This document shows, piece by piece, positions 23,001 to 53,373 of a stretch of 64,000 nucleotides of DNA. The position numbers were made by a program, and so were the translations under genes. The stretch is from contig NW_026861840.1 of the NCBI RefSeq assembly GCF_026571515.1, forward strand, positions 434,001-498,000, given 5' to 3'. A model generated the notes under the pieces. The model did no database searches. It was not told the origin of the DNA and worked only from the letters and a program-made list of their open reading frames with translations. The stretch comes from Ruditapes philippinarum. Taxonomy: Eukaryota. Each line of letters opens with the position of its first letter. The stretch's first letter is position 1.

Positions 23001-24239
23001 GCGTTGCCATGCTGTCTTGGAGTTACGCCGTGATGACTGACATGTTTAACAATGGCTCCTAATGCATATTTCGTAATGTCATAACATAACATGAATGTTC
23101 CTTTGCACACCGTTTTTCCTGACACCCGAAATGTCTTCCTAGAACGCTGCCTTTTTTTGCCACGTTTAGTTTTCTCGTCGCTTCCCTCAGCCACTAACGA
23201 CATGATACACAGTTCTTTCTCCTCCTTTGTCATTTCCCTGATAGAAAGAATATGACTCAGTATGTCGTCAAATTTAAACTTTGTATGACAATTAAGACGA
23301 CAACCACAACCTTTTATAATAAATTGTCTTACTGTCTGTGTATCATCAGATGTTTCACAAATGTCCTCCTCACTACTATTACTATCCGTTCCATCATGAT
23401 CAGACTGACTATTCGCGGTGGTGAAGTCTCTTGCTCTTGTAGCTACGAGTTCGGCCTCGTCATTCTCGCATCTTCAGCGCATTCTTCCTTCATCAGAATA
23501 TTCTGAGTCGGTATTATCTCTCGAAAATTCTGTGGTTTGAGAGTTGTTAGGAGTCCTTCCAAAAATGATCCGAGTAAAGGATTCAAGATCCTATAAATGA
23601 AAAAAAAAAATAAAAATAAAAAAAAAAAACGAATAAAAATGTTAGCTTCAGCTGGGATTCGAACTCGATTCGTTTGCGTGACAGGCCACTTCATTATCCA
23701 CTGAGCTATACACTTATCAGTTATGAAGTGGAATTATAAATCAATATTTTAATCTAAAAAACATTTTTTACTCCATGATGACTTAGCATATTTGGACATA
23801 TTACTTTCCTATTTTCTTGCAACAATTTTTAAAATGAATTATGAATTACGAGTTTGTTTTAATTTAACTTGCGACTGATTAGATTATTCTTAAAATAATT
23901 TGCCGATAATATATGAATTATGAAAACAAATGCTCAATACAAAACTGTACTGTACAGTTAAAATCAAAACAACGTAAATTCAGATCTAAATTTATTCTAT
24001 ATAAAGGCACCGCTCAGAGTTGCCAATTCTTATTCTTTTGTATATTGTATACTTAGATCTAATGTAAGTATACTGTAGATTCTTTACTGTTTACAAACGT
24101 CGGTGTACTACCAACAATAAAAGATTATCAATGCTACAGTATGCTCCGATTATAATTTATAAACATGAAAAATATGTTTTTTGTTGTTGATTTTCATCAA
24201 TTATACATAATACACACTTACTTCTAATTCCTCCTCCAT
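20030..24239 (-). pseudogene. Decayed intron-containing Sola1 DDD transposase
   Basis: Exons 24239-24222 (MEEELE), 23590-22604 (in-frame TGA at 23474-23476; CGCRLNC, VCKGTF, PRQHGN, DVCATC), 22339-21991 (HLTFDFSQ..SDNCP), 21325-~21245 (GQNKN, frameshift), ~21020-20830 (HAMCLVDAGF..WRQWKPFL, frameshift), 20264-20030 (KFQHFRF..RKRYL). Confidence 0.85.
23635..23715 (-). promoter_or_regulatory. tRNA-derived Pol III type-2 cassette (A box, B box, oligo-T) in intron 1 of the Sola transposase
   Basis: TAGCTCAGTGG (23708-23698), tRNA-Asp-like arm gcctGTCacgc, GAGTTCGAATC (23666-23656), then T-runs. The acceptor stem does not pair. Confidence 0.65.
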
Positions 24240-24574
24240 CTTTAAATGTTTCCTCTGAATTCCAAAGTCAATACACTTTTAAAAAATATCAATAGCACAC
24301 GATAAACAGTATTTCCGTATTTACATGTGTAATACGCAACAAGAGTGACGTCATTTAAATCGCTGTAGTGCACATTTATTGTCGTGTCATTAAGACCGGT
24401 TTTCTCGCGTCGCGCGTCATGTATTTGCATCCAGTAATCAATAGTCTTACTTTTAAAATACACTTTGCATATGGCAAAAATGGCACGAGTTTTCTTTTTA
24501 TTATTTTTATTTTCCCCTGTAATAATACATTTCATAATTTTCATCAAATTTATTATTACATTATTTCTATATAA

Positions 24575-24870
24575 TATTAAAGCGGCCAGCTTTAGGTTTT
24601 ATTCTACTGAATCTTAAAGCGGCCAGTCTGTAGGTTTTATTCTACTGAATCTTAAAGCGGCCAGTCTCTAGGTTTTATTCTACTGAATCTTAAAGCGTCC
24701 AGCTTTAGGTTTTATTCTACTGAATCTTAAAGCGTCCAGTCTCTATGTTCTATTCTACTGAATCTTAAAGCGTCCAGCTTTAGGTTTTATGCTACTGAAT
24801 CTATAAGTGTCCAGTCTCTAGGTTCTATTCTACTGAATCTTAAAGCGACCAGACTCTTGGTTTTAAAATC
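24575..24870. repeat. ~38-bp satellite, block 1
   Basis: Unit ttaaagcggccagtctctaggttttattctactgaatc. Confidence 0.92.
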
Positions 24871-25825
24871 TCTAGGTTTTAAAATCAGGTCTTGATAGTA
24901 AACAAGAGTCTGGATAAGAGTCCAAAAATGGTAGTAATTCTGTCAAAATTTGTGTTAAAATAATTGGCCTTCTTAGACAGTGACCTTCTATTATGCTCTT
25001 AATTAATTCAACCCATTCCCTTTTAGTAGTTTTGGAGATACTAACTTGCAATAACATAATAACTAGATCAAAATGTGTCGCCGGCCCCGACACCAGAGTC
25101 GGTACAATAGCTCTCCCTATTCTTCGAATAATCAAGCTAAAAATGCTAATTCGTATATAGAATTGCTTGATTCACATTTTTACAAGTCCCAATATGTCTA
25201 AAGTTATCTCCCTTGAAGCCATGTCATGACATTTTAGACGCGTGTCGCATTTATTTGTCTGTGAAGTTTATTTTATTTCTAGATGAAAGGGTTATTTGTT
25301 TATTTATAAATACACTAATTAACTAAGAGTGGGTTAAGTAAATATTCCAAAATATCGTTATTTAAAATCTACATTGAATTGTAAAAAAAAGAAAAAAGAA
25401 AATTCTCCCTTAATTTAGAGGTAAATAGTGAAATGGGGTGTGACTTGAATTTCTTGATTGTAAACTTTTAAAATCTATTGCAAGTATTACATAATAGCTT
25501 GAAAATTTGTTTAATTCATTGAAATGTTAAGACTATAAAGTAAAACTTTGGTTATGAAATGAAATCGGGCAAAGTTTAGTAGATTCGAGTTATTTGTTCA
25601 TGCATAGTTTATTTTACGGCATTCTTCGTATGTGGATTGAAATAGGTTTATAAAGCCTTTAAATTGTTCACTATTTTTATTCACTCGAAGCCTGTGGTTT
25701 CATTTTGATAGTGTTTAGTGAAAAAATTGTAAACTTACATAATGAAGTCTTGACACACCTTCATTCGATAGATTAACAAAATACAAAAATTTTCTTTCAA
25801 ATTTCCAACGCTACATATGATCAGA

Positions 25826-26720
25826 TGTATTTTACTGAATCTTAAAGCGTCCAGTCTTTGTTTTATTCTGAATCTTCAAGCGGCCAATCTATATGTTTTA
25901 TTCTACTGAATCTTAAAGCGGCCAATCTATAGATTTTATTCTACTAAATCTTAAAGCGACCAGTCTCTATGTTTTATTCTACTGAATCTTAAAGCGTCCA
26001 GTCTCTGTTTTTTTCTACTGAATCTTCAAGCGGCCAATCTATATGTTTTTTTCTACTGAATCTTCAAGCGTCCAGTCTCTGTTTTATTCTACTGAATCTT
26101 CAAGCGTCCAGTCTCTGTTTTATTCTACTGAATCTTAAAGCGACCAGTCTCTGTTGTATTTTACTGAATCTTAAAGCGTCCAGTCTTTGTTTTATTCTGA
26201 ATCTTCAAGCGGCCAATCTATATGTTTTATTCTACTGAATCTTAAAGCGGCCAATCTATAGATTTTATTCTACTAAATCTTAAAGCGACCAGTCTCTATG
26301 TTTTATTCTATATAATCCTAAAGCGTCCAGTGTCTAGGTTTTTATTCTACTGAATCTTAAAGCGACCAGTCTTGTTTAATTCTTCTGAATCTTAAAGCGG
26401 CAAGTCTCAAGGTTTTGTTCTATATACAAATGTAATCTTAAAGCGACCAGTCTCTATGTTTTATTCTACTGAATCTTAAAGCGTCAATTCTCTAAGTTTA
26501 ATTCTACTGAATCTTAAAACGTCCAGCCTCTAGGTTTTATTCTATATAATCTTAAAGCGACCAGTCTCCTTGTTTTATTCTACTGAATCTTAAAGCGTCC
26601 AGCCTCTAGGTTTTACTCTTTATAATCTTAAAGGTTTTATTCTATAAAATATTAAAGCGTCCAGTCTCTAGTTTTTCTTCTACTGAATCTTATAGCAGCT
26701 AGTCTCTCAGTTTTATTCTT
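25826..26720. repeat. ~36-38-bp satellite, block 2, with an internal higher-order duplication
   Basis: Same unit as block 1; a multi-unit variant pattern at ~25826-26000 recurs at ~26156-26330. Confidence 0.92.
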
Positions 26721-27153
26721 CTTTATATTTCTTTAATGTCATGTTGATCATATGCAGGGGTCTGTATATGATGTCAATATGATTCTCGTAACGGTTTCAC
26801 ATTATAAAGGGAAGTAAATGTATATTCTCTAACTTTCAAATTTCAAGAGTTATTTCCCTTTACCCTATCTCTAAGTTATAAATATACAAATTGTATGTAA
26901 TACTTTAATCAAAGTAAAAACTGGGAAGGTTGGGAAGGTCAGGAGGGCATTATCATTTGGAAATTTGGAATAATTCAAAGTGAAACATGTGAAAACTTAT
27001 ATATATAATAGAAACAATCTATCATCTTTTAACTTTTTTATTCAAAAAACAAAAACAGAATGAAACATCTTGTACAAACAAACTATACAAAGACATATCA
27101 AAATTGCACTATTTATGCTATGCACTAATTATATTTTAAACATTTAATGTCTT

Positions 27154-29282
27154 TTAATAATACACAGCTTCATAATTATTTGGATTTCTTCTGGCCTTTT
27201 CGTAGGAAGAACTATTTGTGACTTTATCATAGAAGTTCAAGAAACTGGCCAGATTATCTCTGTCAACGTTTGATAGAAATTCACTCATTGATTCATCGAC
27301 AGGTACTCCTTCGTCGGCGAAATCCGCACATGATTTGCTAAGCTGCTCAACAAGTCTATTTTTAGAAACAACCGGATCAGCATCCACTTTCACGCGGTAT
27401 CTAGGCAACGCACTGTATGCTGAATTGTTCCTTGTATTAGATGTTGACTTAGAAATTGGACCACATAACCTTTGATCAAGCTGGGAATCAGACAGAGTGA
27501 GAAATGGTCTTCGTTTCCAATCCTGAGATTTTGACATTTTATTACTTGGGATTATTTCTTGGCCGGCATCATGTGTCACAGGGGCTTGAACTGATTTCCG
27601 TTTCCACTCATTGTCAGATTTTCTTTCGATCACATGTACATCTCCCTCGGAACTACTCCTCTGAACTCTTTGTGGAGTCTGAATGCCCCAGAAAGAATCT
27701 TGTTCTATATTCGACGGTTTCTCAAAGTTTTTCTTAATAGACAAAACACTTTTTCCCATTTCACTGGACACATTTACACGTTTTGTGAGTTTTCTATATG
27801 CTACGTTCTCAGAACCTTGTTTCGGTGTTGAACTTTTTGGAACACTGACTTGTTCTCCCCACTTAGTCCACACATTGAAGACCTTGTGACCGTTAGGCAC
27901 CAAGCGTTTCTCTTCCCCTGACGATTCAAACGATGACGATGACAAATAACCGGATGTATTGGAATCCGTGTCAGATCGCGTTGACCCACATTCTGAACCA
28001 ATCACACTCGGCGTTACAGATTTCACGCGCTCCTCTCGAGACTCATTCTGCATCCCCGTTACACAAAACACTCGTCCCATGTTGGATCTACCGGAAGTCA
28101 TGTTGCGTCCAGTCTAAAAATAGAAAAGATGTAAAATATCAGTATTGCAACATTACAAGTTTATAATATAAACATAATAATAGCGTTACAACTAACATAA
28201 TTGTGAAAAAATATTTAACGTTTCGTATTTCATATACATATGTCAAAGTACGACACAGCTGTTTTATTTGTATATACGCATCAAGTATTTGCAGTCAGGT
28301 TATTTATTTACCCAGTGTCTTTCAAAAAAGACTCTGATTTTTACAAGTTTGTTAAACAAAGCAAAACAAATAAAAGTCAACTTGAATTTATCCTCTACTT
28401 ACGCAATATAGTTTTAAGTAAATATATCCCAATTATTCTATATTTTTACTTTTTAAAACAAAATTTCTACAGTATGTCCTTCGCATGCGACTTGACAATG
28501 TAAAATGAAGTGCGCCGTTCGGCTATTTAAATGCCAATTTACATTGTTTGAAGGCTTCGCATAACTTGAGATCGGATGAAACCCTGGCATATGTTTTAAC
28601 AATTGGACATAATAATTGCTTCTAATTGTTTAATATTACCTACAACCGTGCAAACAATAGATTGCAAATCTTCACAAAAGGGTTTTCAGACACAGCTATT
28701 GTATGTGATCACAGTTTTACAAACACGTCAAGTTAGCCTTGATGGACGATAATCGGAAGTAGGAAATATTATAAACTGGTTTAACAATGGGCTTTTCAAA
28801 AAGATAACCAAAGTATCATCAAAATCGAAAATCTTGTTATTATTATTAAATCGTTAAATTGGCTGAATTTACGCGCGAAATATTTCAATTAGCTATTTAT
28901 AATTGATCTAAAAATAAACCTTTTGTTAGATTTTTTTTTTCTAAAGATATAAAAGATCATTTGGTAGGATTTTTTTGTAAACTGTAAGATTAAGATTGTC
29001 TGAATGTAGCATAGGAATGTCATATGTTATTATATCTAATATTAAATGCAAATTATTAAAATAGTTCGTAGTTTTAAAAATGCATAAGTATTTGCAAAAA
29101 AATGAATGCATTAATTTGTTCAGATAAACACCTCTTAAACATTTATTTTATTTTGTATAATAGAAATTAAATGCAAAAATAATTCATATGTATTTAAGAA
29201 ACAACTGCACACATGATTTCACTATGTTACTAATGTATTTAAAATAATTTATATTTACCTTATGTTTTGATATAACCGGCAT
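27154..29282 (-). CDS. Uncharacterised Ser-rich protein, 2 exons, ~327 aa
   Basis: Main ORF 28101-27154 is preceded by acceptor cttttctatttttag|28113. An upstream exon 29282-29259 (MPVISKHK, donor AG|gtaaat) joins in frame. TATAAA at 29389-29384; AATAAA at ~27042-27037. Confidence 0.75.
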
Positions 29283-29383
29283 TGTTGATTGTCGTACTGT
29301 AATCTCTCGATAAATAATGATAAAATAGTTGTATGGTTTGGAAGATATCATAAAATGATGAAGGTCCAGTACTGGTCAGTGGT

Positions 29384-29389
29384 TTTATA
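29384..29389 (-). promoter_or_regulatory. Candidate TATA box of the 327-aa gene
   Basis: TATAAA ~100 nt upstream of the exon-1 ATG. Confidence 0.4.
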
Positions 29390-32003
29390 GTTTAACCGTC
29401 TTGACATTCCCAGGTTACTCAAATAAAGCAGCTGTGAATCCTACAACAGAATCGTGGCATACGGTTAATGACACCATAAAATTACATGTTTTTCACACCC
29501 TTTATTATTCTGAAAGGCGCTTTAAATAAATTAATTGTTTGTTTCTTGTTAATTGCGATGCGCGTGAAAGCCGTGAAGAAAACGCTCGTGTCAAAAATTT
29601 AGAGTACTCTCGTGCTGTCAAGTACTAATTTAACTTAGCACTAATTGTCAGAAGTGTCTATCCGAACTTTATGATAGTTTAATTGGGGACTGATTAATTA
29701 AATCATTGTTCATTTATTGCTTTACAATGGCGTGGAAAAGAATTGAAAAAATTGGACCGAACGTCTTTTGTAAGTATAAATGATTGGTAAATAAAAGATA
29801 AGTTTTTACTGAAAAATAGACACTGATTTTAAGAATAATGAAATAAATAAAGTGTTAATAAATAGTATTTATTTGAGTGTAATAAGTAATAATTGGCAGT
29901 CTATTTATAAGTTAGAACATCCAAATGTTAAACCATTATTGCTCGTTAAACAATAAAAACAACATATGATTTATTTTAACTGTGTGAAAAAAAGGAAAAA
30001 CGAAAAGGAATTTTGAGAGACATATAGATATACAAAGTTTAACATATATAAAATAGTCAACAGATAGTAGAAAAATGCAGTTGCTTAAGGTATGTATGGT
30101 TTTTAAATATTCTATGTAATATATATTATATTAAATGTTTTTCAACTGTATCATTTTCAAACGAGATTGCATGTTCAGTCAGTTATCAAACATCCAGGGA
30201 AAAAAAAAGAAAACTAATCTTGACATAAAGGGTATCATACAAATTGTTTACAACAAATGTTACATTTTAAACACTCATTTACGGAACAGTTGTGATACAG
30301 TTAACAAAACATACATTACTGTCAGTGCTGCTGTACTTAAAACAGTAAAATGACATCAAAATGTCAATATGATACATAATAAATGTCAAATTCTTTTAGT
30401 TATTTTCAAATTTTAAGAATAGAAAAAATGATACACATATAAACTTATTTAGAATTACCTTTAAACCTCGGTGGTGATCAGCGTAAATTTTAACAAAATC
30501 GTTGTACTTCCATTTTAATACACGGTACGCTGTTCAACTTCTTCTTCTTTGTAATCATTTAAAGCAACATTATAATTTCTAAGACAAACTAATATTATTA
30601 ATTGTATAATCTGACAGTTTAAGTACCATGACATTGATGTATCAGTTTATAAAACAGGAATTTATGTTAAAATTTCATGTCAAGGGAGGGATGCTTTTAA
30701 TTGCCTTGAAGCAACTCGAACATTTCTGACACCTAGATTGTTGTGTCGAACCCCTTGTGACACTGACAAGATGCACCCCTATCATCAGTACGAGAACCAA
30801 GAAAAAACTTGACAAAAATGATAAATATTGTAAAAATAGGCGCTTACGATTTAAGTGAAATAATATCTTTATTTTAAACAGGTAACACATGGAGAAGATC
30901 TTAATTGTAAATGTGTCCTTCTTTACAATAAATAAAAATACAACATTTAAACAGTGAAAGTATCTGTAACAAATGGAGAAAAGGAACGCTGATTACATGA
31001 CTGCTAAAAAGGTTTTGCATATTTGTTAAAAAAATATACCAAAGCACGTTAATCAAGTAGCAGTAACACTAATTCTAATTATACATACAATTTGTAGATT
31101 ATTTTAGCTTTCTGACGCAATGACTCATAGTTTAAAATCTGGGACAAAAAAAAAATGGCCGAGGTTTAGTTAAAATACTAAACTTCTTTTATTGATAAAT
31201 ATGATTCATGTATTTAAATTAGCAGTATTTTCTTTTTTTCTCTTTTTTTTAAAAAAAAAAACACTGGACGCAGAATGTTTTTTTTATAAAGATCATGCTC
31301 CGATAATGTTAGAGCACTTGACATCATGTCAAAAAAGTCATTTAACAATGTCGATGTCCATGAAGATTGTACAAGAAGATTTCATTTTAACACCGTTTAA
31401 TGATCAACAATCGATGGATGTATCAAAAGAGGGAGCTTCGGTGTTATCGTTTTGAAGATCGAACATTTTTTGTCAACAATGCAGTTAAATTAAAGACTAA
31501 GAGACGTTAGTCACTAGCTACATGTAGATTACATTGTTTACACTTGTCAAAATATTTTCTAAACGATTTAAAAGTTAGTCTTTGATTTTAAACAACTGTC
31601 TAGCAATTAAGATCTGTATCGGAGTGGTCAAGAATTTATACACGAGATTAACGTGCGAGGTTGTACCTACCTCGAGATACATTGAACGACGATATGTTTT
31701 TCAAATAACAAAACAAGATTTATGCATCAAACTATAGAACGTGAATTGTAATTTAGACCGTACCATGTTCACAGTCACCCAAAACCTACCCGAGTCCGTC
31801 TATTTGCGGAACACGAATTGTTTTATTTTAAAAAATGTTTTTTTTTTATTATTATTTTTAACCAAATATGTAAATTGACATATATTTGAAGGTCGTTTGA
31901 TATTTAGATCTAGACTTAACTTTCAACAATATTTGGATTTAAGAAACGATTTTTTTTAGATTATCCGTTCAATAAACTTATCTAACAATAATATCGTGAA
32001 TCA

Positions 32004-32140
32004 TGGCCGAGTGGTTCGTGGGTTCAAACCCCGTCTGGGGCAAGCCGTTGTTTCCATGAGCAAGAAACTTTCCCCTCACTACTTAGTATCGGTTGGTTCC
32101 AGGAACAGATTCGAGAGTGTTTCAATAAGCTTATAGCTTC
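32004..32140 (+). mobile_element. tRNA-derived SINE with an internally deleted head (family different from 42823)
   Basis: tggccgagtggt (A box) fused to gggttcaaaccc (B box), followed by body gtttccatgagcaagaaactt...gttccaggaacagattcgag. Confidence 0.6.
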
Positions 32141-32693
32141 AAACACAAGTTCGTACAAAGTATTTTTTATCTATAGTTTCTGTTTGATATTATGATTGTG
32201 CAAAAGCACCATTTTAAAAGAAACATCATGACTAAATGAAAACATGACTGTCTTAAACGACTGCCTTATTAGATGTTAAGTTTTAACTTATCTTAAACGG
32301 GGACGGAAATTTGATAGCGTAAAAAGGCTAAACGGTGAAAGAGTAATGTAGACATTTTTTTTATTGCATTTCAATTCTGATATCACGATTAGGAAATGTT
32401 ACAAAAAGCTTAATTATTTTTATCTGATCATATCTTTAAAGATTACCTTGTAATAAAAACATATTTTACAATGTAACAGCACACGATTAGAAAAAGTCCC
32501 GAAAGATCTAAACAGGTCCCCTATCAATTATCCCCTTGTTGATCCTGATCTTATCTGATGAAAACGTTTGAAGTTTTAAGGGTCAAATATCAATTATCAC
32601 ACAAAATGCTGACCCCTAGGGCTCAATTAGTCATTACGTCGTAAAACTCGGACTGACGTTCCATCAATAAAGCACCTCAGCAGCCACCTTAAA

Positions 32694-32860
32694 TATAAAG
32701 CAGCATTTATTTCTTGTCAAAACTGATCGACTTGTAATTATTTAAATAACGACACTTAAAAAAACTGAAGCAGTTATGAAATGAGCGCGCATGTGAGTGG
32801 AATAGTATTCGGATACTAATCATATCATTATTTTTCGGATATCTTTAAAACACAGTTGAT
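32694..32860 (+). promoter_or_regulatory. Candidate TATA box and non-coding first exon of the RA-domain gene
   Basis: TATAAA at 32694-32699; strong donor gat|GTAAGT at 32861; downstream acceptor tttcag|ATG at 34206/34207. Confidence 0.45.
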
Positions 32861-34084: not shown

Positions 34085-34203
34085 TTTAATAATTATATTT
34101 TCATATTAAATCACTACATTTCATATTAAATCACTATATTTCATATTAAATCACTATATTTCATTTTAAATCACTATACATATTTCATATTTAATCACTA
34201 TTT
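34085..34203. repeat. ~20-bp tandem repeat abutting the splice acceptor
   Basis: atttcatattaaatcacta(c/t) repeated ~5-6 times. Confidence 0.85.
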
Positions 34204-34206
34204 CAG

Positions 34207-35860
34207 ATGGCCGATGTTCTACATCTAAAAGACAAGGGAATTCCGCTGAAAGTAGACGGTTCCATACGATACGTAAAAGGGGCGACAAAGTACACAACAT
34301 GCGCTGACGTCATCAAAATGGTTCTGAAGAAAACCGGGATCAAAAAGGAGTACAGGCATCTTTTTGCCATATATGAAGTTTCACTTAATACAGAAAAGCC
34401 TCTGCCTTGTAAAAGCAGGATTGTTAAAGTGATACAAGCATGGAGAGGGGAGCCGAACAGGTTAGTGCTCCGGAAGTCGGAACCTCTTACCCCGGTTGAA
34501 GTGAAAGACAAACGTAGTAGATGGAACTTGAAGAAAAAATCCACACAACACATATCCGAAACACGAAAACTCCCTGACATAGAAACACTGACATCTCTCG
34601 TTGAAATGGTCGACAAACATAAGAATCGAGTACAACAAGACGCTCGTCCAAATATCGGACAAAGGGAACTGTTTGTGGATAGTACTAGTGATTCGGATAG
34701 CAGCATGGATGAATTCCTTTCAAAACTTGACCATTCAAAGATCAATGGACTTATAAATTTCTTTGCTGCTATTGCAACCAAGAAACATAGAAGACAAACT
34801 TACCGTAGGTCAAATAGCGGATCGACAAATGAATATGCTGACTCATCGGACAGCTCTCCAGTGCGTCCAAGACGACGTAAAGTAAAATGTTCTGCTGCAA
34901 AGAAAACTAAATCTCGAAGCAGCAGAAGTCGAATGATGGAATCAGCAGACGTGCATCCAAATAAAAGACACGCAGTCCAAATGGTAAATTTTGGATTTAT
35001 AGACGTCGAGCCAAGGTCACAAGACAGAGTGTACTCGCTTTCGGAGGGACATTCTTCGGATGAGCAGACGACAGCAGTGCGGCCTCGTTCCGCTAAAATA
35101 GTTTACAGCTCGCAGACGACTCATACCAGCCAAGAGAGAAATGTATTCTGTCCAAGATGACAACCATTTAAACCGAAGACTAAAAACAAGAAGAACTGTC
35201 TTAGAAGAGTCTTGTAGAAGCTTGAATAAACAATACAATATCAGAAGAATGTCCGGAAACTGTCAGGAACTCTGCTGTGAAAGTCCAATTCATAATGTTG
35301 ATTCCGGTCACGGTGAGGAATCCGACTCATCTACTGATTTGGATGCGGCATTTGTGATTAAAAAGAACGCTGGTGACGTCATAAATACGCGTCAATATAT
35401 CGAGACACCGGAACATGGCCGCATTTTCCAAACATTTGTATCTGAGAAGCAAGTAACAAGTTCTGCTAGGAAGCTAGTAGAGTACAGCATTACTGAAGAT
35501 GAATTGGATGCCTCTGAAATTATCGATATAACTTCAACGTCCGAGACAGAGGATGAGGACAGTGAGCATTACATGAATGGTTGTCGGACAGATAAATTCG
35601 AATTTGGAATTAAAACAGAAATAAGTGAAACCGAAAATTGTGCAATATCCCATAATACGCAAGACGAGGTTGGAAAACGAAATGAGTTAAATCATAATGT
35701 TGCTGATTTCATAAAGTCAGTATTTGGAAAGCAAGTGATAAATGAAGATGAAGAAATGAACAGTTTTATGAAATCTATGGTCCTTGATGATTCATCGTCA
35801 GACGAAGGGTTAAGCTCAATGGGCAGTGATTTAGAAAAAGATGTTAGAATACGAGTATGA
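34207..35860 (+). CDS. N-terminal Ras-association (RA) domain protein, N-RASSF (RASSF7-10)-like; the ORF is split by a frameshift between 35102 and 35157
   Basis: IPLKVDGSIRYVKGATKYTTCADVI..IYEVSLNTEKPLP..IVKVIQAW..LVLRK fits the N-RASSF RA domain. ORFs 34207-35160 and 35141-35860 overlap in different frames; removing one base gives ~550 aa. Confidence 0.78.
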
Positions 35861-40620: not shown

Positions 40621-40951
40621 GTCCTTAACTAATAGTTAAATAGCAGTTAATAGAAAGTTTGTAAACCTAATGGTGAAGTTAACAATCTCTGCAGAGTAAA
40701 CCTTTTTGGACAATGGAAGGTCTGTTTGGTTTTTGCCAAGTGGTGTTGATAAAGTGGTTATGTGAAGTCTTTTGGAAGGAGTTGGTATGGATATATATTA
40801 GGTAATTTGCGTACAAATGGCCGTTATGCAGAGGCTGTAGTATAGATTAATGAGAAAGCACAAAAACATTTTAACAACTTTATTCATAACAAGTCAAATA
40901 CAATATTCAATACACAGTAATTCTGGTGCCTCTGCCAACCAGAACCAATCC

Positions 40952-43900
40952 TTAGTTGCGAGAAGCTTGACACGTCATGTACTTGTAAATACGATCCCTG
41001 AGAATTGAATAGAAAGTAAATCAATTAAGAGTTCCTTAAAATAAAACCACAAATTATTTTAGGCATAAATGGTGATCTACCTTTGGAAAATTCATATTCA
41101 CTTCTGAAAAAAAGAAAGATTTTTCTTCATGTCGAACTTGTATATGTAAATTGAAAAATTCAAAGGACATTATATTCAATTTAATTATGTGTTATTCTTG
41201 ATCATTGATTTTTTTAAATAAACACTAAGTATATGTTAGTGTTCATCCGTGCTGTTCTACAGAAATTAGAAACTTTGACGGGAGCGATAGCGACAGGAGA
41301 ATGTTTCTAATTTCTGTAGAACACCTACGGATGAATACTAACATATTTAGTGTCAAACTTTATTTGGCCTCATAATCACTCACTTTATTACGTCACTGTG
41401 CCGTTCTATGAAGTACTATTTAAAATGGAAGTCGACTATGAACGGAATTCGATTTAGTGTCCAACTTTATTCGTCATCAAATGAAAACGCTGTATTTCTT
41501 AAAAATTCTGTGCGTTAATTTTCATAGAAGTACAAAAGTCGATACTATATCGAATTCCGTTCATAGTCGACTTCTATTTTTCATAGTACTTCATAAAACC
41601 GCATAGTGACGTAATAAAGTGAATGATAATGAGGCCAAATAAAGTTTGACACTAAATATGTTAGTATTCATCCGTGCTGTTCTACAGAAATTAGAAACAT
41701 TCTCCTGTCGCTATCGCTCCCGTCGAAGTTTCTAATTTCTGTAGAACAGCACGGATGAACACTAACATATACATAGTATCGACTTTTGTTCTATGAAAAT
41801 TAACGCACAGAATTTTTAAGAAATACAGCGTTTTCATTGGATGACAAATAAAGTTGGACACTAACAAAACGTGATATTTGAATTTATACAAAATCATTAA
41901 CCAATTGCATTCACAACCAGTAATGTTCATAAATCCAGGATAACCGTTCGATGCATTATACAAAATATGGCATAGTTTATTGTCACAAAGTTACAGATTA
42001 ATGTACTTCAAAGTACTTCTACTTATTTACGAAATCAGAAAATGAAGTATATTTTGACAAATTATAGCGAGTGTGGTTTCTTTATAGTGTGTTCTTTAGC
42101 GCAAGTGTATAATTATTTTTTCTTTATATATTTGATATTTGATCAGTACATGTATAATCAAGGCATACTTCACTTGTTGACAAAATGTGTAGGCTTGGTG
42201 AAATAAACTAAATTTTACACATCACAGACATTAATAACGAACATTTAAAAGTTGTCATGAAAGCCCAAGTTCGGCGTGCTGCTTTCAAATAGATTATACT
42301 TACTCGCGACGGTTGCTATGAATCGAGACCAAGCCTTTCGTAACTCGGCTAGTTCCGGCATTGAAGTATTGTTGACCATCGTAGTTATTGGTCCATGAAG
42401 TATAATGACAATTAGACAGCTGAACACCTGAGAGAAAATAAATAACAGAAGATAAAACTTATGTTGTTTACAAGACATAAAAAGGTATTACTTGGACACA
42501 TATTTAATTTTGTTTACAGAGATCTAACATTTAGTCCCATTTCTCCTTGTGTTAAGTATAAACTGCACTGGTGTCATGAGCAAATGTGATCTTGAGGCGA
42601 GTATGGCTAAAGTTTTTTGATTTAAAGGCAATGATGACCTTTATCATCAGGCCATCTACATATTAAAAATGTAAATTATGATACGTCGGCATAATTTGAT
42701 ATCACTTGTAGCCAAGAAGTTTGCCCTTGGCTTCATACTGTTAGATAGTTAATTGAAATAGGTAGTTACAGATGTATTGAAAGTTTCAAATTTTAAATTG
42801 GACTGTTTCAAATTTAAATATGGTTTGTTTGTTTGTTTGAATGTGTTTTACGTCACATCGACACAGTATAGGTCATATTGCGACGTTCCAGCTTTACTGG
42901 TGGAGGAAGACCTCAGGTGCCCTTCCGTGCATTATTTCAGGCACGAAAGGGCACCCGAGTAGAACCACCGACGTTCCATAAGCTAGCTGGATAGCTTCCT
43001 CACATTAAAGAATCCAAAGTCCCAGTCAGGTTTCGAACCCTCAGCGGCGAGGGGCAAGTGGTTTGAAGTCAACGACCTTAACCACTCGGCCACGGACGCC
43101 CCATTTCAAATATGGGAAAATCCATTACATACAAGAGCATCGCATGTGGTGTTAATGCTCGTCTAAAAAATTGTGCAAGTTAAAAAAAATGCCATTACTC
43201 CAAAAATGAAATTAAGAATGATGTCATTTGTCAGAATATACACTTGCCCGTCTTGATAAGTATTCCAAGTTTTATATCACACTTATTATCAGTATCTTTA
43301 TAAACTTGTTGAGTAATAAACAAATGTGTTTGCATGACGACATCAAAGTGATCATAATAGCTCCACTTTCATGGAAATAGACCAGCTAAAAGTTAAAGAG
43401 ATAAAAACGTAACAAAACTTACCAGGCATGCCACAACATTTCACTTTCCACCTCCTGTCTTCTTGGCGATTGCTGTGGTAACTTTGAAAACCACCGATGT
43501 ACCTATTGCCAGAGCATTGATATACAATGGGTTCGTCCCAGTCGTTAATATACTCTGAAATCACAGAATATTCAGTTTACAACTTGTCAAGCAAATCCAT
43601 CCACTCCCATTTTTCAGTGTATGGTTGGGATTTAAAACAGACATGAAAAAGGACTTTAATCAATTCGAACAAATAAGTTTGTGGTTCCGTATTATCTACG
43701 GTGTCCCCTAAGGGTCATGTAAACACAACAGCTTTTTTGAGTTATTTGGAGGAATTTAAGGCTCAATGGTCATATGATCAACTATAATACAAGCGAGAAA
43801 TAAACTGTTCCCTAGTGTGTCAGTTATAAACTTTACTAATGAAGGTATACCGTTTTCAGGCCAAAGCAAAGTTTTTCCAGGATATTTTATGTAATGAACC

Positions 43901-45428
43901 ACATGATCACCTGTATTACAAAACTATGTTCTCTGAAGGCAATCTTAACGAAGCTGATAAAGTGGCTCACAAAGAACACCGTAGTAATTCTGAATAATGA
44001 TTGTTTGTCACAGTATTGATCATAGGGTGACGTTCCAGGTTTATTTTACTACTGGAGGAAGACCTCGGGTGTACTTGCATTATTTCAGGCACGAACGGAC
44101 GCTTTAGTAGAACCACAACGTTTCGTAAACTAGCTAGATAGCTTCCTCACATAAAAAAAATCCAAAGTTTCTGTCGCGATTCGAACCCACAGCGTTGAGG
44201 GGCATGTGGTTTAAATTGAACGACTAACCACACGGCCACAAATGCTTCAAAATGTTTGATATACTGTGTATAGGAATAAGGTATATTGCAACTGTTGAGC
44301 AAATGATAACATAATACACGACACGTTACTTAACATATACCATGTCATAAAGACCATGCCCTAAACCTTTTTTTTTAAAGAATTTGCACCCGTTATAAAT
44401 AAAATGCAATGTAGTTCACGTGTGGCACTTTGATCTTCTCGTCAACATTTTCTTGTGAAAGGTCAGGTAAGGATCTTCTGAATAAAGGTTTGTTAAAATC
44501 TACTCAAGATGGGGATAATGGGCGGAGGAGGACGCATATGCTATTACAAAAACCTTACATTCCGAACACTGCTCTGGTTGGCTTGACGTGAGCACACATA
44601 AAACAATGTATACAAGTTTTATTAAATAATACCTGTCCAAGTACAAGTGGGTGTTAAGTCAGAAACATCACATGGAAAATCTCGGCAACTCATGTCGAAG
44701 ACACGATCTTCTTGGCGATTGTGGTGTACACTGGTTATCTGGGCGATGAACTGGTTCTCATAACGACATTCATATTGTAACGGCCGGTCTAAACTGTTGA
44801 CAATAGTGCAGCTCCCAGTGTGTATGATACTGGCCACAATTACAAGTTCCTAAATTAAATTAAAATCAGCACATTATAACATTATAAAGGTCCTGTATCT
44901 TTCACCTTCTTTATTGGTTTTTATACCATTAATGTGATGCTTAAGATTTACCAATAGCGCAAGTTCCAAAAAGAATTATTTGTTAATATATTTCTAAATT
45001 TACATTTCATGTAAGTAAAGGTAGGTAATTTGAAATTTTCGATAAAGTCCAAGCCAAATTTTTTTAAACCAGAAATGAATGCAATTATTACTTATAAACT
45101 TATAATGCGCATAAACATTTAAGGGAGACGTCGAGAAGGTTTTATATTTTATATTTACTACCAAAAAAGCAATAATAAGGCAAGATGTACGGCATATTAA
45201 TACGTGTTTGACAAAATGCTTCAAATGACATTTTGAAAGCTTGATTTCTCTGGGTTTTTTAAGGGGGGGGGGGTAGATTTGTCCATTTTGAATCAAGACA
45301 GGAATTCTGCATCAGCGGTGAAAATAAATCCCCTATCAGAATATATCTGAGATCAATTAAAACAATTGAAGGCATACAAAAATGTATATAAAATTTAATT
45401 CAATAATTCTTACCCAAATAAGATGCAT
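40952..45428 (-). CDS. Dermatopontin family / hemagglutinin-amebocyte aggregation factor-like secreted protein, copy 1 (intact, 177 aa)
   Basis: Exons 45428-45414 (MHLIW), 44849-44633, 43554-43423, 42427-42304, 40997-40952, all GT-AG, 534 nt. Three S-x-H-x-N-x-x-E-D-R repeats (SVHHNRQEDRVF, SYHSNRQEDRRW, SIHSNRREDRIY). AATAAA at 40884-40879. Confidence 0.92.
41224..41864. mobile_element. Crypton-like non-autonomous element arranged A-B-revcomp(A)-revcomp(B)
   Basis: A=41224-41453, B=41454-41547, A'=41548-41775, B'=41774-41864. A holds a hairpin with loop gggagcgatagcgac. The family assignment comes from pattern recall only. Confidence 0.6.
42823..43102 (-). mobile_element. Full-length tRNA-derived SINE
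   Basis: Head ggggcgtccgtggccgagtggttaagg..gggttcgaaacc, conserved body, (CAAA)n tail, TSD attt(c)aaatatgg on both sides. Confidence 0.88.
44010..44243 (-). mobile_element. SINE, same family, degenerate (another fragment at ~15340-15478)
   Basis: Body actggaggaagacctc..aggcacgaac..gatagcttcctcacat, plus B box. Confidence 0.8.
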
Positions 45429-46609
45429 TTCAGATGAATTATTCTGCTCGACGTGAAGACGATCCTTGATCTGAAAATTAAAAATATAAAAAGTGTAAAG
45501 TATAAATGTTGGTTCGAAATATTTCAGGAACGAGGTAAAATTTTAAAGATTTTCATAAGCGCCCGACTAAATATTAATACTAGAACCGTTTAATATGTAC
45601 AAATATATATATATATACTTAACAAAACTTATAACTGCAGTTTTTAAATGTGAATAACTTTTTTATTACTTGACATTTTTTACCCAAATTTTGGAATTCA
45701 TCGTTTGAATGGTTTATTTTTAAAATGCTATATTCAGAAATAACGGTTATTTTTGTTGTGTGCGTTCATCCGTGACATGTACATTAACAACAAAGTGCAC
45801 GTGAGGACGACAGGTTGGCGCTAAATGAAGTTATTATTGACCATCAAGGATTCTATTAAAATAAAGATATCCAAAAAACACACATTTATTGCATAATTTT
45901 TGCAATTGAAAGAAAAATGGCCGTCTACAAGTTTTTCGCAAGGGAATTTGCATTTCGGGCGCCCATTTTGAAAATAAATTTGCATAATATTTTCTCAAAT
46001 AAACATATTGACTAACATTTTACTTTAAAACTAAAAACAAACTTTCTTGGTATTTTCATATTAATGAAAATATCGTGTTTGCATTGCTTTTAGTAACTGG
46101 GTACAACGCGTTACGGAGGTCGACATAAACCAGTCTTAACTTAAATTCAATAAAGCAAATATTAAAATCACAGCGACATAATGCCCTGGAATTTATTGTA
46201 GTATTATACCCTATCGATGATCCTATGTTTTATGTTTGTATTTTAGTGAAATCAAGAGATTTAGACCTTTTTGCACCCATTATAAACACGCATTTTACAG
46301 AAATGTGAAATTCGGTTTTCGCGCAATCTTGCACACTTCGCTATTTCTCAGTAAATACGAATCGCCCTGACATAAAAATCGATACCCAACATTGCACATA
46401 TGTATACTTTATTTGGTTAAAATTTCAGAGACCTATCTTAAAAATTTGAATTTTATACGTGCACAGTTATAAGATTTGTTAAGTGTATATACCTGTATAT
46501 CATAAAAATGTACGATTACTTTAACATTTTAATGAAGTTCGACTTGAAAACACGGTGTGCATTCTACGACACTAAAGTACACAATGCTCAATGTTGATCT
46601 CTTCATAGG

Positions 46610-47063
46610 TTGAAATGAAGGGACATCATTCTGAAATTGGCATTTGCTTGAGTATCTTTTATAACTATATAATAAAAGATATCACAGGAAATTGACATTC
46701 TATAGGCAAATAATTAAAAAATAACGGCAAAATTTGTTGTTGACATTTGAGTGAATATTGCCAATTTATTATTATACAATGCTTCGATTTAAAATATCAG
46801 CGGTTGTAAAAGGACTAATTTTGTATTGTGTATCGAAATTGCTAAACTAATTTGTTTACATTGATTTTCCACGTGTGTAATTAGATAAAATGTGTATCGA
46901 GTGTGCAAAAGGCGTTGCATTCATAGTATAGAGGGATATATTTGCCGTTATTTTTTAATTATTTGCCTATAGAATGTCAATTTCCTGTGATCTCTTTTAT
47001 TATATAGTTATGAAAAGATACTCAAGCAAATGCCAATTTCAGAATGATGTCCCTTCATTTCAA
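46610..47063. repeat. ~120-bp near-perfect inverted repeat with ~210-bp spacer
   Basis: 46610-46731 versus the reverse complement of 46941-47063. Confidence 0.88.
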
Positions 47064-47917
47064 AACCAAACTACATGGTTAATAAGCTAAATCAAAATGG
47101 TGTATAGCGTCATAATTTTTATGAAAAAGTGTTGAAACCCGTCATAGAAATCATTCTACTTTATATGTAATTGACAAATTTAGTTAAAAGGCTACTTTAA
47201 AGTTTTCGCATTACAATAACGACGCACTAGCGATAATTAAAACTATGGATGCACGATCAGAATTAATAGTTGTAAAATAAGTAAACAAATTAGTGACCAA
47301 AAATTGAAAATATCTTCAGTGCAATAATCAGATAATGTGTAGACGTGTTTAGTCTTTAACAGACCCATTATTAACCAATGCTATGTGCAGTGCAGATAGT
47401 TCGGTCAAACGTGCTATGTGCAGTGCAGATACGACCATTAATAGAGATTCAGCTTAATATTGCAACAAGATATGCCACGTGTTCGGTCAAACGTAGATAT
47501 ACGTAATTTACAATAATATATACGTAATTTACAATAATATATAAGCATGTAAACATTAAAAAATTTACGGTATCATTTGATGCTATATAAGTTGTCAAAT
47601 ATTAACAAAACTAAATAATGTCCGAGTCTTGCTCTGCAGTATCAGAAGCAAACTCATTTGTATCCCAGTCTATGCACGATTCCATTTCCGGTAAAATGGC
47701 ATTGAACGGGTCGATAAGCACAATTGAAACACAACACATTCAGGACATTTTAAGTATAGTTTGATTTTATTGACCTGTCAATTATGAATACATTATAGCA
47801 CTCATTTAAATATTCGATCCCACTTCGGTTGTGTCCGTTTATTTTACGAGAATTAATATGGAGCAAATAAATAATGTTTGGATAACTCCCACTAGCTTAA
47901 TAAAGGTTCTGGGAACA

Positions 47918-47998
47918 TCCGCAATAGCGCAGTCGGTTAAGTGATTACCTAATGCATGAGAGGTCCGAGGTTCGATCCCTTCTTTCGACATTCTTTTT
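47918..47998 (+). promoter_or_regulatory. Isolated tRNA-derived Pol III A/B-box cassette
   Basis: TAGCGCAGTCGG (47925-47936), GGTTCGATCC (47969-47978), TTTTT (47994-47998). No cloverleaf and no SINE body. Confidence 0.55.
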
Positions 47999-49109
47999 AG
48001 ACTTATTCTTTCTTTATTTTTAAGAATTTTTTTATTAAATGGTCAAGCGCCTGCAAAATTGTCTACACGGATATGAAACACCTAAGAAACACTGAATTGT
48101 CACATTTTGTATTGTATTTTACGGTACTCAAATTACATTAATTGATTTTAATCCTAATGAATTTTCAGAAATTAATTCTATTATAACAAACAGTTATTAT
48201 ATAACAATGTTATATACAAAAGTATAGTATTTACAAAAAAGTGCAAAACATATTAAAAACGGAACAACCATAACTTCAAAAATGTTGAAAATAGTTATGA
48301 ATAAGAAAAAAACCTGGACATACTCTGTCTCGATCTTACAACACGTTGGACATTCAGATAAAATATACCCGTACCCTATTGCGCTATAACGGTCAGTGTA
48401 ACTTATTCATCGAAACTAGATAAGTTTAATCACGGAATTTGCCGAACATTTATCGAATATTAATATATTCTGTGCATTGACCGTATAATCAGTATGGAAT
48501 TGACAGGTTAATAAAATCAAACAATAAACTGTAAGTAAAGAAGAACAAATATTTTTACCTGAAGATATGAAGTTCAATTCAAATGTCTCAAATTATCTAA
48601 TGGTACAATCTCCGAACGCAGCACTCGAGGAACACCCGACTTGCCTTGTCGCTTGGTGAAGGTGGAATGACAAAAACGGTTGACATTGAGCGTTTATATG
48701 CGAATTTTGTAATGCAAAATGCACGAGGAAAACATGTTTTTCTATATTTTCATGGATGGCGCATTCTATTAATCCATAATGTAATTTATATAGTGTGTAA
48801 ACAAATGAGGCGCGGATCGCCGAAAGGAAACCAATAAATTCATATTTTTGACTGTTGAGGCTTAGAACTAAATATATGTTTAATTTAATAACCACTTTAA
48901 GTACCAAAAATAATGCCATTTACAAAAATATGTGAAGAAATAATACTGGTAATAGAAAAATTAATTATATAATTTAATGGCCTCCCCTACTTTCCCCTTC
49001 ACACACAAATACCCCATTGGTAGCCTCTTAAGTAATGATATGTCCAGAGCACGAATAATCCGTGTTTTGAAAAAAAATCCTCATAACATGTGATATTTAG
49101 TCATTTTAA

Positions 49110-50861
49110 GGTATCACATGCAGTTATTGTGGAGCAAACTTCAATAAAAAATTTCATTACTTCGTCAATTCTAATTAAACTTTGTGCATACTAATAATGT
49201 CCTTATGCTTCAATATAATTATCAATCTAGTCAAAATGTGTGCTTTTCGCAACAAGAAACACACTTTTACAGTTTTCCCGAATGCTTCTCTGACAAAAGA
49301 ATCATTGAGATCAATTGGTAGGAAAAATGTCCCCTTTAACACTCACTATAAAATGTACATGTATTTCATCCTTTTTTTACAGGGTAGGTTAGCAAGTGAC
49401 ATTTGTTTACGGTAACATTGGGTCACAACTCATGGTATTTGCTGTTGTTTTGTTTGTTTGTTTTTGTTGTTGTTTTTTTGTGTTTTTCTTTGCTTTACCT
49501 TTATTTGACTATTTAACAACATATAGCATGTTCCAGGTAAATATTTGCCAGTTCCAGTGGTATATAACTTCCCATTGTAGCTTTTTTTACTTGCAGAACT
49601 TTCATATGTAGCAATATTTTGATGAAAATATGTGCCACTCTTTCGGGAGACGTTCAATGGCTACATAGGAAAAATTAGATTCGGAAAATATTTGCCCTGA
49701 ATATGGGGTATGTATATTATTACTCAAATATATAAATGAAAAACGAAGTAGAACTCCGCGAGTCGGATGTGCCGCTTTGTCAACATTATAGAGCTGTCAT
49801 GCATTTTCTTCTTATCTTTCGTAAATATAGCTTATTTATAAACACCACTCTTGCAATGTACATGTACCTTTAACTTTAGTGGCATTTTAACTGATTGCAA
49901 CAATGTTACGTCAGTTTAATAAAACTGTTAAGTTATCAAAACTAAAAATATCATGGAAAAGTTTTACACTGACAGATCAAACGGAGGACTATGTGATGGA
50001 TTATTGTGCACTGCACTTCAGGTCAATGAAAAAAAGCTTGCATTCAACCAAACTCAAAGTGACCAAATTATGCTCTAGACAGGTCTGTTAAGTAAGAACA
50101 ATATCTAAAAAAGCAGTAAGTACAGAGTACAAGTTCTTGTGCACTGCACTTTCTCTATCCTATAGAGTTTCAAGTCCATAGCTTTTATAGTTTAGAAAAA
50201 TGGCCAGTACAAAAATAAAGATTAAAAATTAACAAAGGGCAATAACTCACTTGACAAGCCTATTAGGTAAGAATATTAATAAAGGGCAATAACTCAAATA
50301 TCATGCACTTCTTCGCAATGAGATATTTCATCCTATGAAATTTCAAATCTATAGCTTTTAATGTTTAGTAGACTTTGCTCGGACAAAAAAGTATGAAAAT
50401 TATCAAAGGGCAATAACTAAAAAATCATGAGGTACTGAGTACCGATTTTGTGCACTGCACGGCACTTCTTCTCAATGAGATCCATCATCCTATGAAGTTT
50501 CAAGTCCATAGATTTTATAGTTTAGGATTTTAACATTAACCAAGGGCAATAACTAAAAAAAGTAAGAAATGCAGAGTAACGATTCTAGTGCACTGCATTT
50601 CGGGTCTTTAAAAGAAGCATGAATACCAAGTGTGGAGTCAATCCGACTTATAGTGGACAAGCCTAAGGGGACACCGCCGTCACCGCCGACAAAAGTAACC
50701 CATATTTGTCGCCTTTTCAAGGCGACATAAAAATTAGCAAATACTAATATTATATTATTATTATATTTTAAAGTAAACAGTTGCCACGTGATCCTCCATC
50801 CTATAAAATAAATTTATCTGTTTTCTCCAATAAATGTTGGCAAAATGCTAGATGTGATACC
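49110..50861. mobile_element. Kolobok-like element with a nested HINE-like insertion
   Basis: TTAA|ggtatcacatgcag ... ctagatgtgatacc|TTAA; internal aaagggcaataact repeats ending in the hairpin gtcgccttttcaaggcgac. Confidence 0.65.
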
Positions 50862-52454
50862 TTAAACCACCCTGTGTTTAGTTAGATACACAGTAATATA
50901 CATTATTAAGTACATGTATAATGAGACCATGCAACTTGTAAAGAGGTGCTGCCATTACCTTTGACGGTTGAACATGATTTGCTGTTTCCCCGCCGAAAAA
51001 AAATCGAAAAGATTGAAATGACAGTAACCATCCGTACGCCCGTCAGTACGAGAGAACGTGAGGACATTTGTTATATAAAGGAAACAAAGAGAAATGACAA
51101 TTCAATAAGAGGAAGACGCTATTAAACTGACATAAACATTCGATTTTACTTATCTAACAACATAGAACATGATGGGCATCAAGTGGTCAATCACATACGA
51201 TCAATTAGCTGTGAAAGAAAAGACCAAGTGTGTCGATATATATAGTAATTAGAGAGACGTGGTATCTTAATAAATTCATTACAAAGTATATGTACTGCAA
51301 ATACACGAAAAAATGAAAATTATTTTCGTTTGTTTGCACCTGGCATTGTGAGTAAATGTGTTGCATTGTACATAATGATTATAAGATGCTAATTAATCAA
51401 AAACTTATATAAAAAAGCTAGTATATAATTATACACTAGTCAGGGCTGGCTAGCATCAAAGTGACTGGTCAGTCAGCCCGAACCGAAGACGGAGGCCATT
51501 TAATGTTTGTTGCTGATAAGGTTAGGTCAGTCAGTACTACGAGTATTTCTTATATTTTATCGCATTTTATTGGAATAAAAGTATCACTTCAACAAGTAAA
51601 GAAGTCATATTTATCACATACCCGTGCCGCTTTGCGACTCCGTAAAAAAGGTTATGCACGGTCGAGCATATATTTTGACGTGACGTCATTTACGTTCTGT
51701 AATAGAAAGAGCATCGAAACACGAGGTTATCTGATTTGTACGAGGGTGCGTACACCCCCCCCCCCCGAGTATTAATCAGATTGCCGAGTGTGTTGATGTT
51801 CTTTCTCTTTTGTATCATAGTCAAACATCAAAACACGCACTGTGCATGTATATGTATACGATTTAACTCCGACACATTTCCTCAAACTATGATACAATCT
51901 CTTTTGTATCATAGTCAAACATAAAGACACGGTCCCTATTGTCACAATATGAAACCGCACGAAAAAGTCATCAATGAACGAGCATCTGAATATGAAATTG
52001 CTATCGCTTTCCCGTTCTCTACCGTCACAATAAGTAAACCCTAGCAAAAATGAGCCAATCAATTGGCCTGCTCTGCAGTGCGGGTAACTAATACCTGCAC
52101 TCCAGTTAACGCACTGTGCATGCATGTATATATATACGATTTAACTCTGACACATTTTCAACAGAAAGGTCCCAAAACTATGATAGAAATCTTAAATACC
52201 GCAATGTAAGACCAATATTCAGTGCTTCAAATTCCGGGGATGATATAGAAGGCCTATATGTAGAGGTATGTGGCTACATGTATTTAATCAAGCTGCGTAC
52301 ATATTTTTCGGCAATCAAACTCTTCTACTTGCGTACGTGCATACCGTTACTGTAGTATTTTGACGAAGCCTGCGCCACATACCATAAATTGGAGGCCCTT
52401 GCTGCCCTAAAGGAACGAGCAAAACACTTTCTTGAGAGGAAATAAAATGTCCAG

Positions 52455-53373
52455 AAAGTCTACTGCACCCGGTATTTCCAAGCCGTCAACCATCCAGATA
52501 CTGAACGGGCTCGACGTTGTTTAAGGTATTAGGACCCTAATGGGCACTATCAGGAACTAAAGAATTTACATCATAGGTCAGATGTATACCTTAAAGTACA
52601 CCTGTATGCAAAATTTAAACAAAGTTTACCGTACGGAAATCAAGTTATGGCCACTTTTCTGAATTCAAGCTAGGATGTTATGAGGGCCCTTTTTTAGAAA
52701 TGAGGAACCTTTAAATAATCTGCAATAACATTCTAATGAAAAATGTTTTCCCATGAATTTTTGGTAAGAAACAAATAGTACCATTCAGCTAACAATCCAC
52801 ATAAGCAAAATTATGGTTTCTACTTAAAATTTATGAAATCTGTATAAAAATGTTACCCTACCCCACCTATTTTTACCACATGTCTGACCATTTTTCTACT
52901 TAGGGAGGCTAATTCAAAAAATTCTTAAAATTTACCCAAATGAGTGCCTGTTTTAAAAGTTTCCCTAAATTTTTAAAAAAGTATATTGGTTGATCTTGTA
53001 AAATATGAAATACTTTTACCGTCTAGTTTTGATTATATTACACATTGAAAATATCAGGTACCATATTTATTACTAGATTTAGCATAATTTAGCCAATAAA
53101 TACCTATATAAATTAAAAATTCAAAATTAAACACTTTTTTCTTTCCATATGGGACATGAGAGATACATAAATAATGTTAAAAGAAAAAAAGAAAGGAAAA
53201 AAAAGTTGACCTTTCTGGGGATTGAACCCATGGCCCTCATTTTCAATGTAGTTAACAGTAATTCTAGCCTATTAGAATACTCTTCAAAGCGGAGGTAATG
53301 CATTAGGGTGCTAATACCTTAACTTCGGTGATCTGACGAGAACTGGTGTTTTCAACGTAATATGGCCGTAAAT
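52455..53373 (-). pseudogene. 5S rRNA pseudogene split by a transposon
   Basis: 5' half 53373-53319 atttacggccatattacgttgaaaacaccagttctcgtcagatcaccgaagttaa; 3' half 52520-52455 acaacgtcgagcccgttcagtatctggatggttgacggcttggaaataccgggtgcagtagacttt. Together they form a full-length, diverged 5S. Confidence 0.9.
52525..53318. mobile_element. Kolobok-like MITE (794 bp) inserted in the 5S copy
   Basis: TIR ggtattag(g/c)accctaatg 17/18; TTAA TSD at 52521-52524 and 53319-53322; GG..CC termini. Confidence 0.85.

Follow-up and report, generated by a model that had tools for sequence, protein, structure and literature searches.

Why would a DNA transposon, which needs no RNA intermediate, keep the promoter and terminator of a small-RNA gene? 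This question is raised by a 64-kb stretch of the genome of the clam Ruditapes philippinarum (contig NW_026861840.1, positions 434,001 to 498,000, hereafter the window), in which three cassettes made of an A box, a B box and an oligo-T run, the signals of transfer RNA (tRNA) genes that RNA polymerase III (Pol III) reads, lie inside three different transposable elements (Table 1). Scanning the window with consensus A- and B-box patterns (exact B box, at most one A-box mismatch) gave three A+B matches with a T-run, compared with 0.1 in 10 shuffles, and these stand where the original prediction had placed them. It had also described the cassettes as having a decayed cloverleaf and lacking a short interspersed element (SINE) body, tail or target site duplication (TSD), and this was borne out. 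Neither ARAGORN nor Rfam found a tRNA gene in the window (0 matches each), and stem pairing is at chance. The module is fixed within families, points inward, and persists over deep Sola1 lineages and in other animals while its spacer and stems drift. Judged from sequence, it is highly probable that a Pol III promoter-terminator is under selection in these DNA transposons. That it serves as a chromatin barrier for transcription factor IIIC (TFIIIC) and Pol III, keeping the element end and the transposase promoter open, is the reading we favor, with a probability of roughly 45%.

Table 1. Cassettes, carrier elements and related features of the window (positions of the 64-kb stretch).
Feature	Position	Strand	Remarks
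Cassette (i)	23635..23715	-	A box 23708-23698, B box 23664-23656, T-run from 23639
Cassette (ii)	53197..53286	-	A box 53279-53268 (1 mismatch), B box 53227-53219, T8 53204-53197
Cassette (iii)	47918..47998	+	A box 47925-47936, B box 47970-47978, T5 47994-47998
Sola1 DNA transposon	19169..24418	-	5.25 kb; terminal inverted repeats (TIRs) ~35-40 bp; ACAT on both flanks
Transposase exon 1 (MEEELE)	24222..24239	-	GT donor next; annotated protein P0002 reads MEEELE/DLESLY
Transposase intron 1, containing cassette (i)	23591..24221	-	Annotated exon junction
Kolobok-type MITE (miniature inverted-repeat transposable element)	52525..53318	-	794 bp; TTAA/GG...CC/TTAA
5S ribosomal RNA (rRNA) pseudogene split at its own TTAA by the MITE	52455..53373 (pieces 53373-53319, 52520 to ~52455)	-	Insertion site only
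TA-ended non-autonomous TIR element, probably Tc1/mariner (m44-like)	47755..48526	+	772 bp; multi-copy

The carrier of cassette (i) has termini and a short exon 1 like those of the curated families Sola1_S.grandis_34 and Sola1_A.kagoshimensis_21/22 (matched by eye). Sola1 insertions duplicate 4 bp of target; the window element has ACAT on both sides and the left ends of its relatives are preceded by AT-rich 4-mers, in agreement with this length. A near-identical annotated protein confirms the exon 1/exon 2 junction, and DUF7869 was found in a protein 98% identical to the window transposase. Termini, TSDs and the annotated junction thus uphold the Sola1 label and the intron-1 site of the cassette, and the Kolobok label of the second carrier holds likewise. 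Cassette (i) is present throughout the alignment of the window Sola1 family.

The weight of the argument lies on a non-circular test, in which 30 Sola1 loci were chosen by their exon-2 transposase protein alone and scanned up to 1.5 kb upstream of exon 2. A strict cassette on the coding strand was found in 16 of them, compared with 0/30 in each of five shuffles; a relaxed look at 8 of the 12 no-match loci revealed two cassettes with extra mismatches, two deletions, two truncated loci and two members of a clade without a B box. In the transposase tree (29 of the 30 loci, one being too short), six main groups are well separated, the order in which they branch being weakly supported, and five of them carry the cassette: the window's own and others that are ~45-53% identical to the window protein. 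Between the upstream regions of these cassette-bearing clades, BLASTN detected no similarity. Among the five clades, ungapped identity nevertheless reaches 0.60 in the A box and 0.74 in the B box vs 0.27-0.36 in spacer, stems and flanks. The position is constrained as well, with 502-559 nt between splice donor and A box in 8 Sola1 loci (this genome and metagenome contigs) and 540-710 nt between left end and A box in 7.

The same arrangement was seen outside the clam. We collected 32 Sola1-related loci on metagenome contigs of other animals, 19 of them with enough upstream DNA, and compared these distant loci over the transposase and the left/upstream part. The strict test was passed by 4/19, compared with 0-1 in 10 shuffles, and on relaxed inspection an A box, a B-like box and a T-run were present in 11/17, some of the B boxes being weak. 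Most of the contigs come from two record series, so that these loci may represent few animals; no Sola1 relative was found on viral contigs. These comparisons bear directly on the possibility that the cassettes are neutral passengers, that is, tRNA pseudogenes or SINE heads that landed in founder copies and were amplified along with them. The genome is indeed rich in tRNA-like repeats, and passengers may account for individual families of young age, for example the Kolobok MITE, in which box conservation is weak. However, chance landing cannot explain boxes and a T-run at the same position in five Sola1 clades and in other animals, within introns that are otherwise dissimilar. Moreover, identity of the cassettes to the 5 tRNAs and 7 SINE or TRIM-type (terminal-repeat retrotransposon in miniature) heads compared does not exceed 67%, and they have no SINE body, tail or TSD. 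For Sola1, this explanation is already largely refuted, and overall we consider it improbable.

Cassette (ii) is oriented inward, ~40 bp from the left end of a 794-bp MITE. A TTAA TSD and RR...YY termini, which define non-autonomous Kolobok elements in the available text of PMC9587614, are both present in it. The search for this family found 2,538 candidates, of which 40 were scored, and all 30 fetched loci share the left end. The MITE interrupts a 5S rRNA pseudogene that the original prediction had missed, and sequencing reads connect 52519 with 53318 at the split pseudogene. Targeting of 5S genes by this MITE was rejected, since none of 29 other copies (0/29) lies in a 5S sequence.

For cassette (iii), the original prediction was right about a transposable element as host and wrong about its extent: the block thought to end at 49027, with no left end found, is a TA-ended element whose true bounds, left end included, are given in Table 1, and the cassette points inward from the left TIR. 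The sequence beyond it up to 49027 had no second copy in the sampled DNA. The 772-bp element has 1,938 candidates. The TIR register of the TA-ended MITEs is that of TcMar_M.mercenaria_38, one of six curated m44 families, and no empty site or transposase was found; from its sequence the element is likely an m44-like Tc1/mariner derivative. TIR-pattern matches for the TA-ended group numbered 1,571 vs 10 in the control. Among copies chosen by this pattern alone, the B-box core was kept in 10/14 aligned family members (15/30 loci aligned, one of them from another family). A curated Mercenaria TcMar-m44 family carries a cassette whose A box and spacer length (34 nt) are identical to those of one clam MITE cassette, the spacer sequence being different (by eye). 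A second TA-ended MITE, the L231 family (895 candidates), carries two convergent cassettes. Two convergent cassettes also occur in a ~550-bp segment seen in locus L337 (~500-1200, locus coordinates) and in sample block B10, and absent in the sister Sola1 copy L338.

Enrichment of A box, B box and T-run over shuffled DNA, which had been predicted, was observed in a genome sample of 1.2 Mb (nine long contigs, with five shuffles as control): 49 A+B matches were found vs 6-11 after shuffling, 24 of them with a T-run vs 0-2. These 24 belong to a Helentron-like family (8), Kolobok MITEs (4), SINEs (2), a TA-MITE, a convergent pair and a foldback of a TRIM-type head (1 each), the other 7 being unassigned or not cassettes. 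For the Helentron-like (L211) family, the B-box region was matched exactly 1,548 times, with 0 matches in the control, and a 1.47-kb form of the family has two cassettes. Its ends resemble the Helentron/pearl type (subterminal inverted repeat, terminal hairpins, T-rich target; by eye). ARAGORN called tRNAs in three Helentron-like copies only, one of which scored 22.5 bits with a cut-off of 29. Among SINE heads in the sample, 2/20 had a T-run. As predicted, multi-copy alignments of the three window families place the cassette as a fixed internal part of each. Its independent capture by different DNA-transposon superfamilies, proposed at the outset, fits these data, with source tRNA types that are not assignable.

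What is conserved in the cassettes is the promoter with the place of its terminator. In six within-family alignments, the invariant box columns score 0.92 and all box columns 0.87, compared with 0.80 for spacers, 0.78 for stems and 0.82 for flanks (invariant box vs flank columns, p ~0.001, columns not being independent). The boxes were expected to be better kept than the stems, and in family as well as cross-lineage alignments they outlast the spacers too. In tRNA numbering, the first T of the run falls at position 73-80 in 24/24 cassettes and at 77-79 in 5/5 real tRNA genes; the intron background for such a position is 0.14 per lineage, and the T-run was itself a finding criterion for many cassettes. 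Since it sits at the place of a tRNA-gene terminator, we infer capture from tRNA genes at the DNA or pre-tRNA level. In Sola1, 63-306 nt separate the B box from the splice acceptor. In most cases the T-run is therefore not the polypyrimidine tract, and these distances led us to reject that explanation for most Sola1 lineages. A-to-B spacing varies from 43 to 73 nt across cassettes, and flexible spacing is a property of TFIIIC sites.

Conservation of a whole promoter with its terminator, and not of a B box alone, might suggest that the product matters, namely a ~75-90-nt Pol III transcript working as a decoy or guide. Pairing in the T-stem outside the B box gives some encouragement when G-U pairs are counted (29/57 vs 22.9 permuted over 19 lineages, p=0.03). 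Nevertheless, Watson-Crick pairing there (20/57 vs 16.1, p=0.16; 15/15 in real tRNAs) and pairing in the acceptor stem (35/133 vs 39.0 permuted; 31/35 in five real tRNAs) are at chance level, the spacers are unrelated and their length is variable. Because stem pairing is at chance, the functional short-RNA branch of the original prediction is weakened, and we hold a role for the transcript to be improbable. RNA reads do not argue in either direction. For the Kolobok MITE, no RNA data set was listed. In runs X23 and X24, depth is equal on both strands without a start or end peak at the cassette, these libraries losing short RNAs, and the cassette region of Sola1 is covered by reads in one bin of X23. 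Two further runs labelled RNA-Seq, X21 and X22, contain thousands of loose ends at GATC sites, resemble proximity ligation and were not used as RNA.

The cassettes share with tRNA genes the A box, the B box at tRNA spacing and the oligo-T, and lack the paired cloverleaf; they were rejected as tRNA genes, tRNA finders being mostly negative. Assignment of a source isotype was dropped, as unrelated real tRNAs reach z values up to 6.7 in the spacer test (5 isotypes compared). Like tRNA-derived SINE2 elements, including the bivalve HCD SINEs, the carriers are high-copy repeats with tRNA A and B boxes. In the accessible part of PMC11481361, a SINE2 head forms the 5' end and is followed by a body, a tail and a 6-18-bp TSD. 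Unlike it, the clam cassette sits within an element, flanked by TIRs or Helentron-like ends, and is closed by oligo-T. SINE2 heads were rejected on these grounds, since in every full-length copy the cassette is found inside the TIR element, without body, tail or TSD. The TRIMp3 elements Helenus, Ajax and Cassandra are long terminal repeat (LTR) retroelements whose Pol III promoter derives from tRNA or 5S sequences, Helenus being known from molluscs (PMC10886601, available sections). They too are mobile, with Pol III boxes kept and a decayed cloverleaf. However, their promoter makes the RNA intermediate, whereas the clam carriers move as DNA and have a terminator directly after the tRNA-like part; with inverted termini in place of the two direct LTRs, which in TRIMp3 hold the Pol III promoter and come with a PBS and a PPT, the carriers were rejected as TRIMp3. 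Such elements also exist in this clam: in L363:552-948 and L364, a Helenus-like TRIM, often arranged in tandem, has TG..CA direct repeats that contain a tRNA-like head and its T-run, and block B07 is a 263-bp foldback built from this head.

The carriers appear to be normal members of the bivalve Sola1, Kolobok, TcMar-m44 and Helentron/pearl types or elements derived from them, and the accessible text of papers on these types describes no Pol III module (PMC10294476, PMC9587614, PMC3879986). In the part of PMC3879986 available, MITEs are without a Pol III promoter, and pearl and DTC84 are without complete boxes. Full-text searches of the literature returned no account of DNA transposons with a Pol III cassette among their parts, Repbase entries, subscription papers and the curated sequences beyond their first 400 nt being further sources that may bear on novelty. 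A Pol III promoter-terminator in DNA transposons thus apparently has no earlier description. On present evidence, the clam cassettes look like a small-RNA-gene promoter that mobile DNA has captured, in elements for which no RNA intermediate is required.

In yeast, fly and mammals, TFIIIC sites and tRNA genes have a barrier function and are associated with cohesin and condensin, and extra-TFIIIC sites include the C. elegans repeat CeRep3, which resembles tRNA pseudogenes with A and B boxes (PMC6950938, PMC4226948, as far as their accessible sections go). The clam cassettes are similar in structure; the known sites are host loci, or repeats that these papers do not describe as pieces of DNA transposons, with demonstrated occupancy, whereas the cassettes are parts of DNA transposons and known from sequence alone. 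In the mechanism we propose, an A box, a B box and an oligo-T derived from a tRNA gene would form a fixed internal part of the transposon, predicted to recruit TFIIIC and probably Pol III. The resulting barrier would keep the element end and the transposase promoter open, countering silencing, while the terminator would halt Pol III ahead of the transposase exons, and the module would be retained through selection acting on the transposon. We favor a barrier because it would be useful to coding and non-coding carriers alike and fits a site near the left end. The broadest version of this idea, that several superfamilies, both cut-and-paste and rolling-circle, repeatedly turned host tRNA genes into portable TFIIIC/Pol III anti-silencing barriers and scattered thousands of putative TFIIIC sites through mollusc genomes, is more tentative than the barrier role itself.

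Usefulness to non-coding carriers is also the strength of a role in replication or repair, in which the Pol III complex would pause forks or load cohesin or condensin, so that gap repair from the sister chromatid after excision raises copy number. It would account for retention in non-coding MITEs and for convergent pairs (L231 family, L337 segment); association of TFIIIC sites with cohesin and loading of condensin by them are reported in PMC4226948, and PMC9679248 mentions that forks pause at tRNA genes (both in the sections available). Nevertheless, it leaves the fixed Sola1 site unexplained (coding strand of intron 1, at 0.54-0.71 kb from the left end) and appears unlikely. Conversely, the constant distance of the A box from the donor in Sola1 would suit a self-limiting brake, by which TFIIIC/Pol III in intron 1 damps transcription of the transposase by RNA polymerase II and lowers the cost to the host. 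Transposase reads are indeed few (18 and 62), but low counts are usual for transposases, and a brake offers no gain to non-coding MITEs, two of which acquired a second cassette. We judge it slightly less likely still than replication or repair, and the barrier remains our preferred reading.

Several observations weigh against selection on the module, or limit its reach. In the Kolobok MITE, the boxes are hardly better conserved than the flanks (A 0.82, B 0.79 vs 0.76) and the B box is broken in 2/6 clusters; in addition, no cassette was present in six curated Kolobok starts (first 400 nt; among 13 of the 84 places listed). In the family labelled D1 the signal is reversed, with a B box at 0.71 below its own flanks at 0.86. 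Within the window Sola1 family, a deleted sub-lineage has fixed the B-box change A58>T. A Sola1 clade (L331-L333, L335) with open frames and near-identical copies has an A-box-like motif in intron 1 and no B box; the module is therefore dispensable. The B boxes of L377 and L380 are off consensus. Box conservation across the non-Sola1 families is partly circular because those cassettes were found by their boxes. The cassette is also infrequent: it was present in 3/18 de novo TIR groups (at least 250 bp), or 4 with one decayed representative, an upper estimate since the sample included loci fetched for cassette families. Moreover, when the first 400 nt of ~800 curated bivalve families (supplements of PMC10294476, seen in part; number estimated by file size) were searched for 18 B-box words, 16 occurrences and a single cassette were obtained; this length stops short of the Sola1 cassette position.

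No RNA intermediate is required by DNA transposons, and a Pol III promoter-terminator conserved in several of their groups suggests an unrecognised cis-acting strategy; their escape from silencing becomes testable by one point mutation. The L331-L333, L335 clade provides a natural B-box loss for comparison. The cassette could also offer transposon vectors a compact module of natural origin. In addition, cassettes may account for part of the surplus of tRNA-like predictions reported for bivalve genomes; in the available part of that study, the tRNA-Ser surplus is not in a repeat (PMC9679248). Genuine tRNA genes were encountered as tandem tRNA-Arg(TCT) arrays with ~160-bp spacing and as tRNA-Lys(TTT) clusters (L253-L270, L271-L275).

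Other tRNA-like sequences and repeats were noted. A ~950-bp repeat (L360:505-1451, L361, L362), with copies 96-98% identical, has an internal tRNA-like head. In the window, B boxes at 43038 and 44186 (-) belong to two tRNA-SINE heads of the commonest sampled family, each followed by a SINE body without a strong terminator, and a B box at 7793 (+) is part of a weak A+B match without a T-run. Palindromic MITE-like or foldback repeats free of cassettes occur at 9459-9699, 15630-15870, 59400-59640, 41224-41864, 46610-47063 and 2452-3801. An open reading frame at 27154-28113 (-) had no Pfam match, and long open reading frames at 34195-35860 (+), the first with a Ras-association domain, belong to a host gene.

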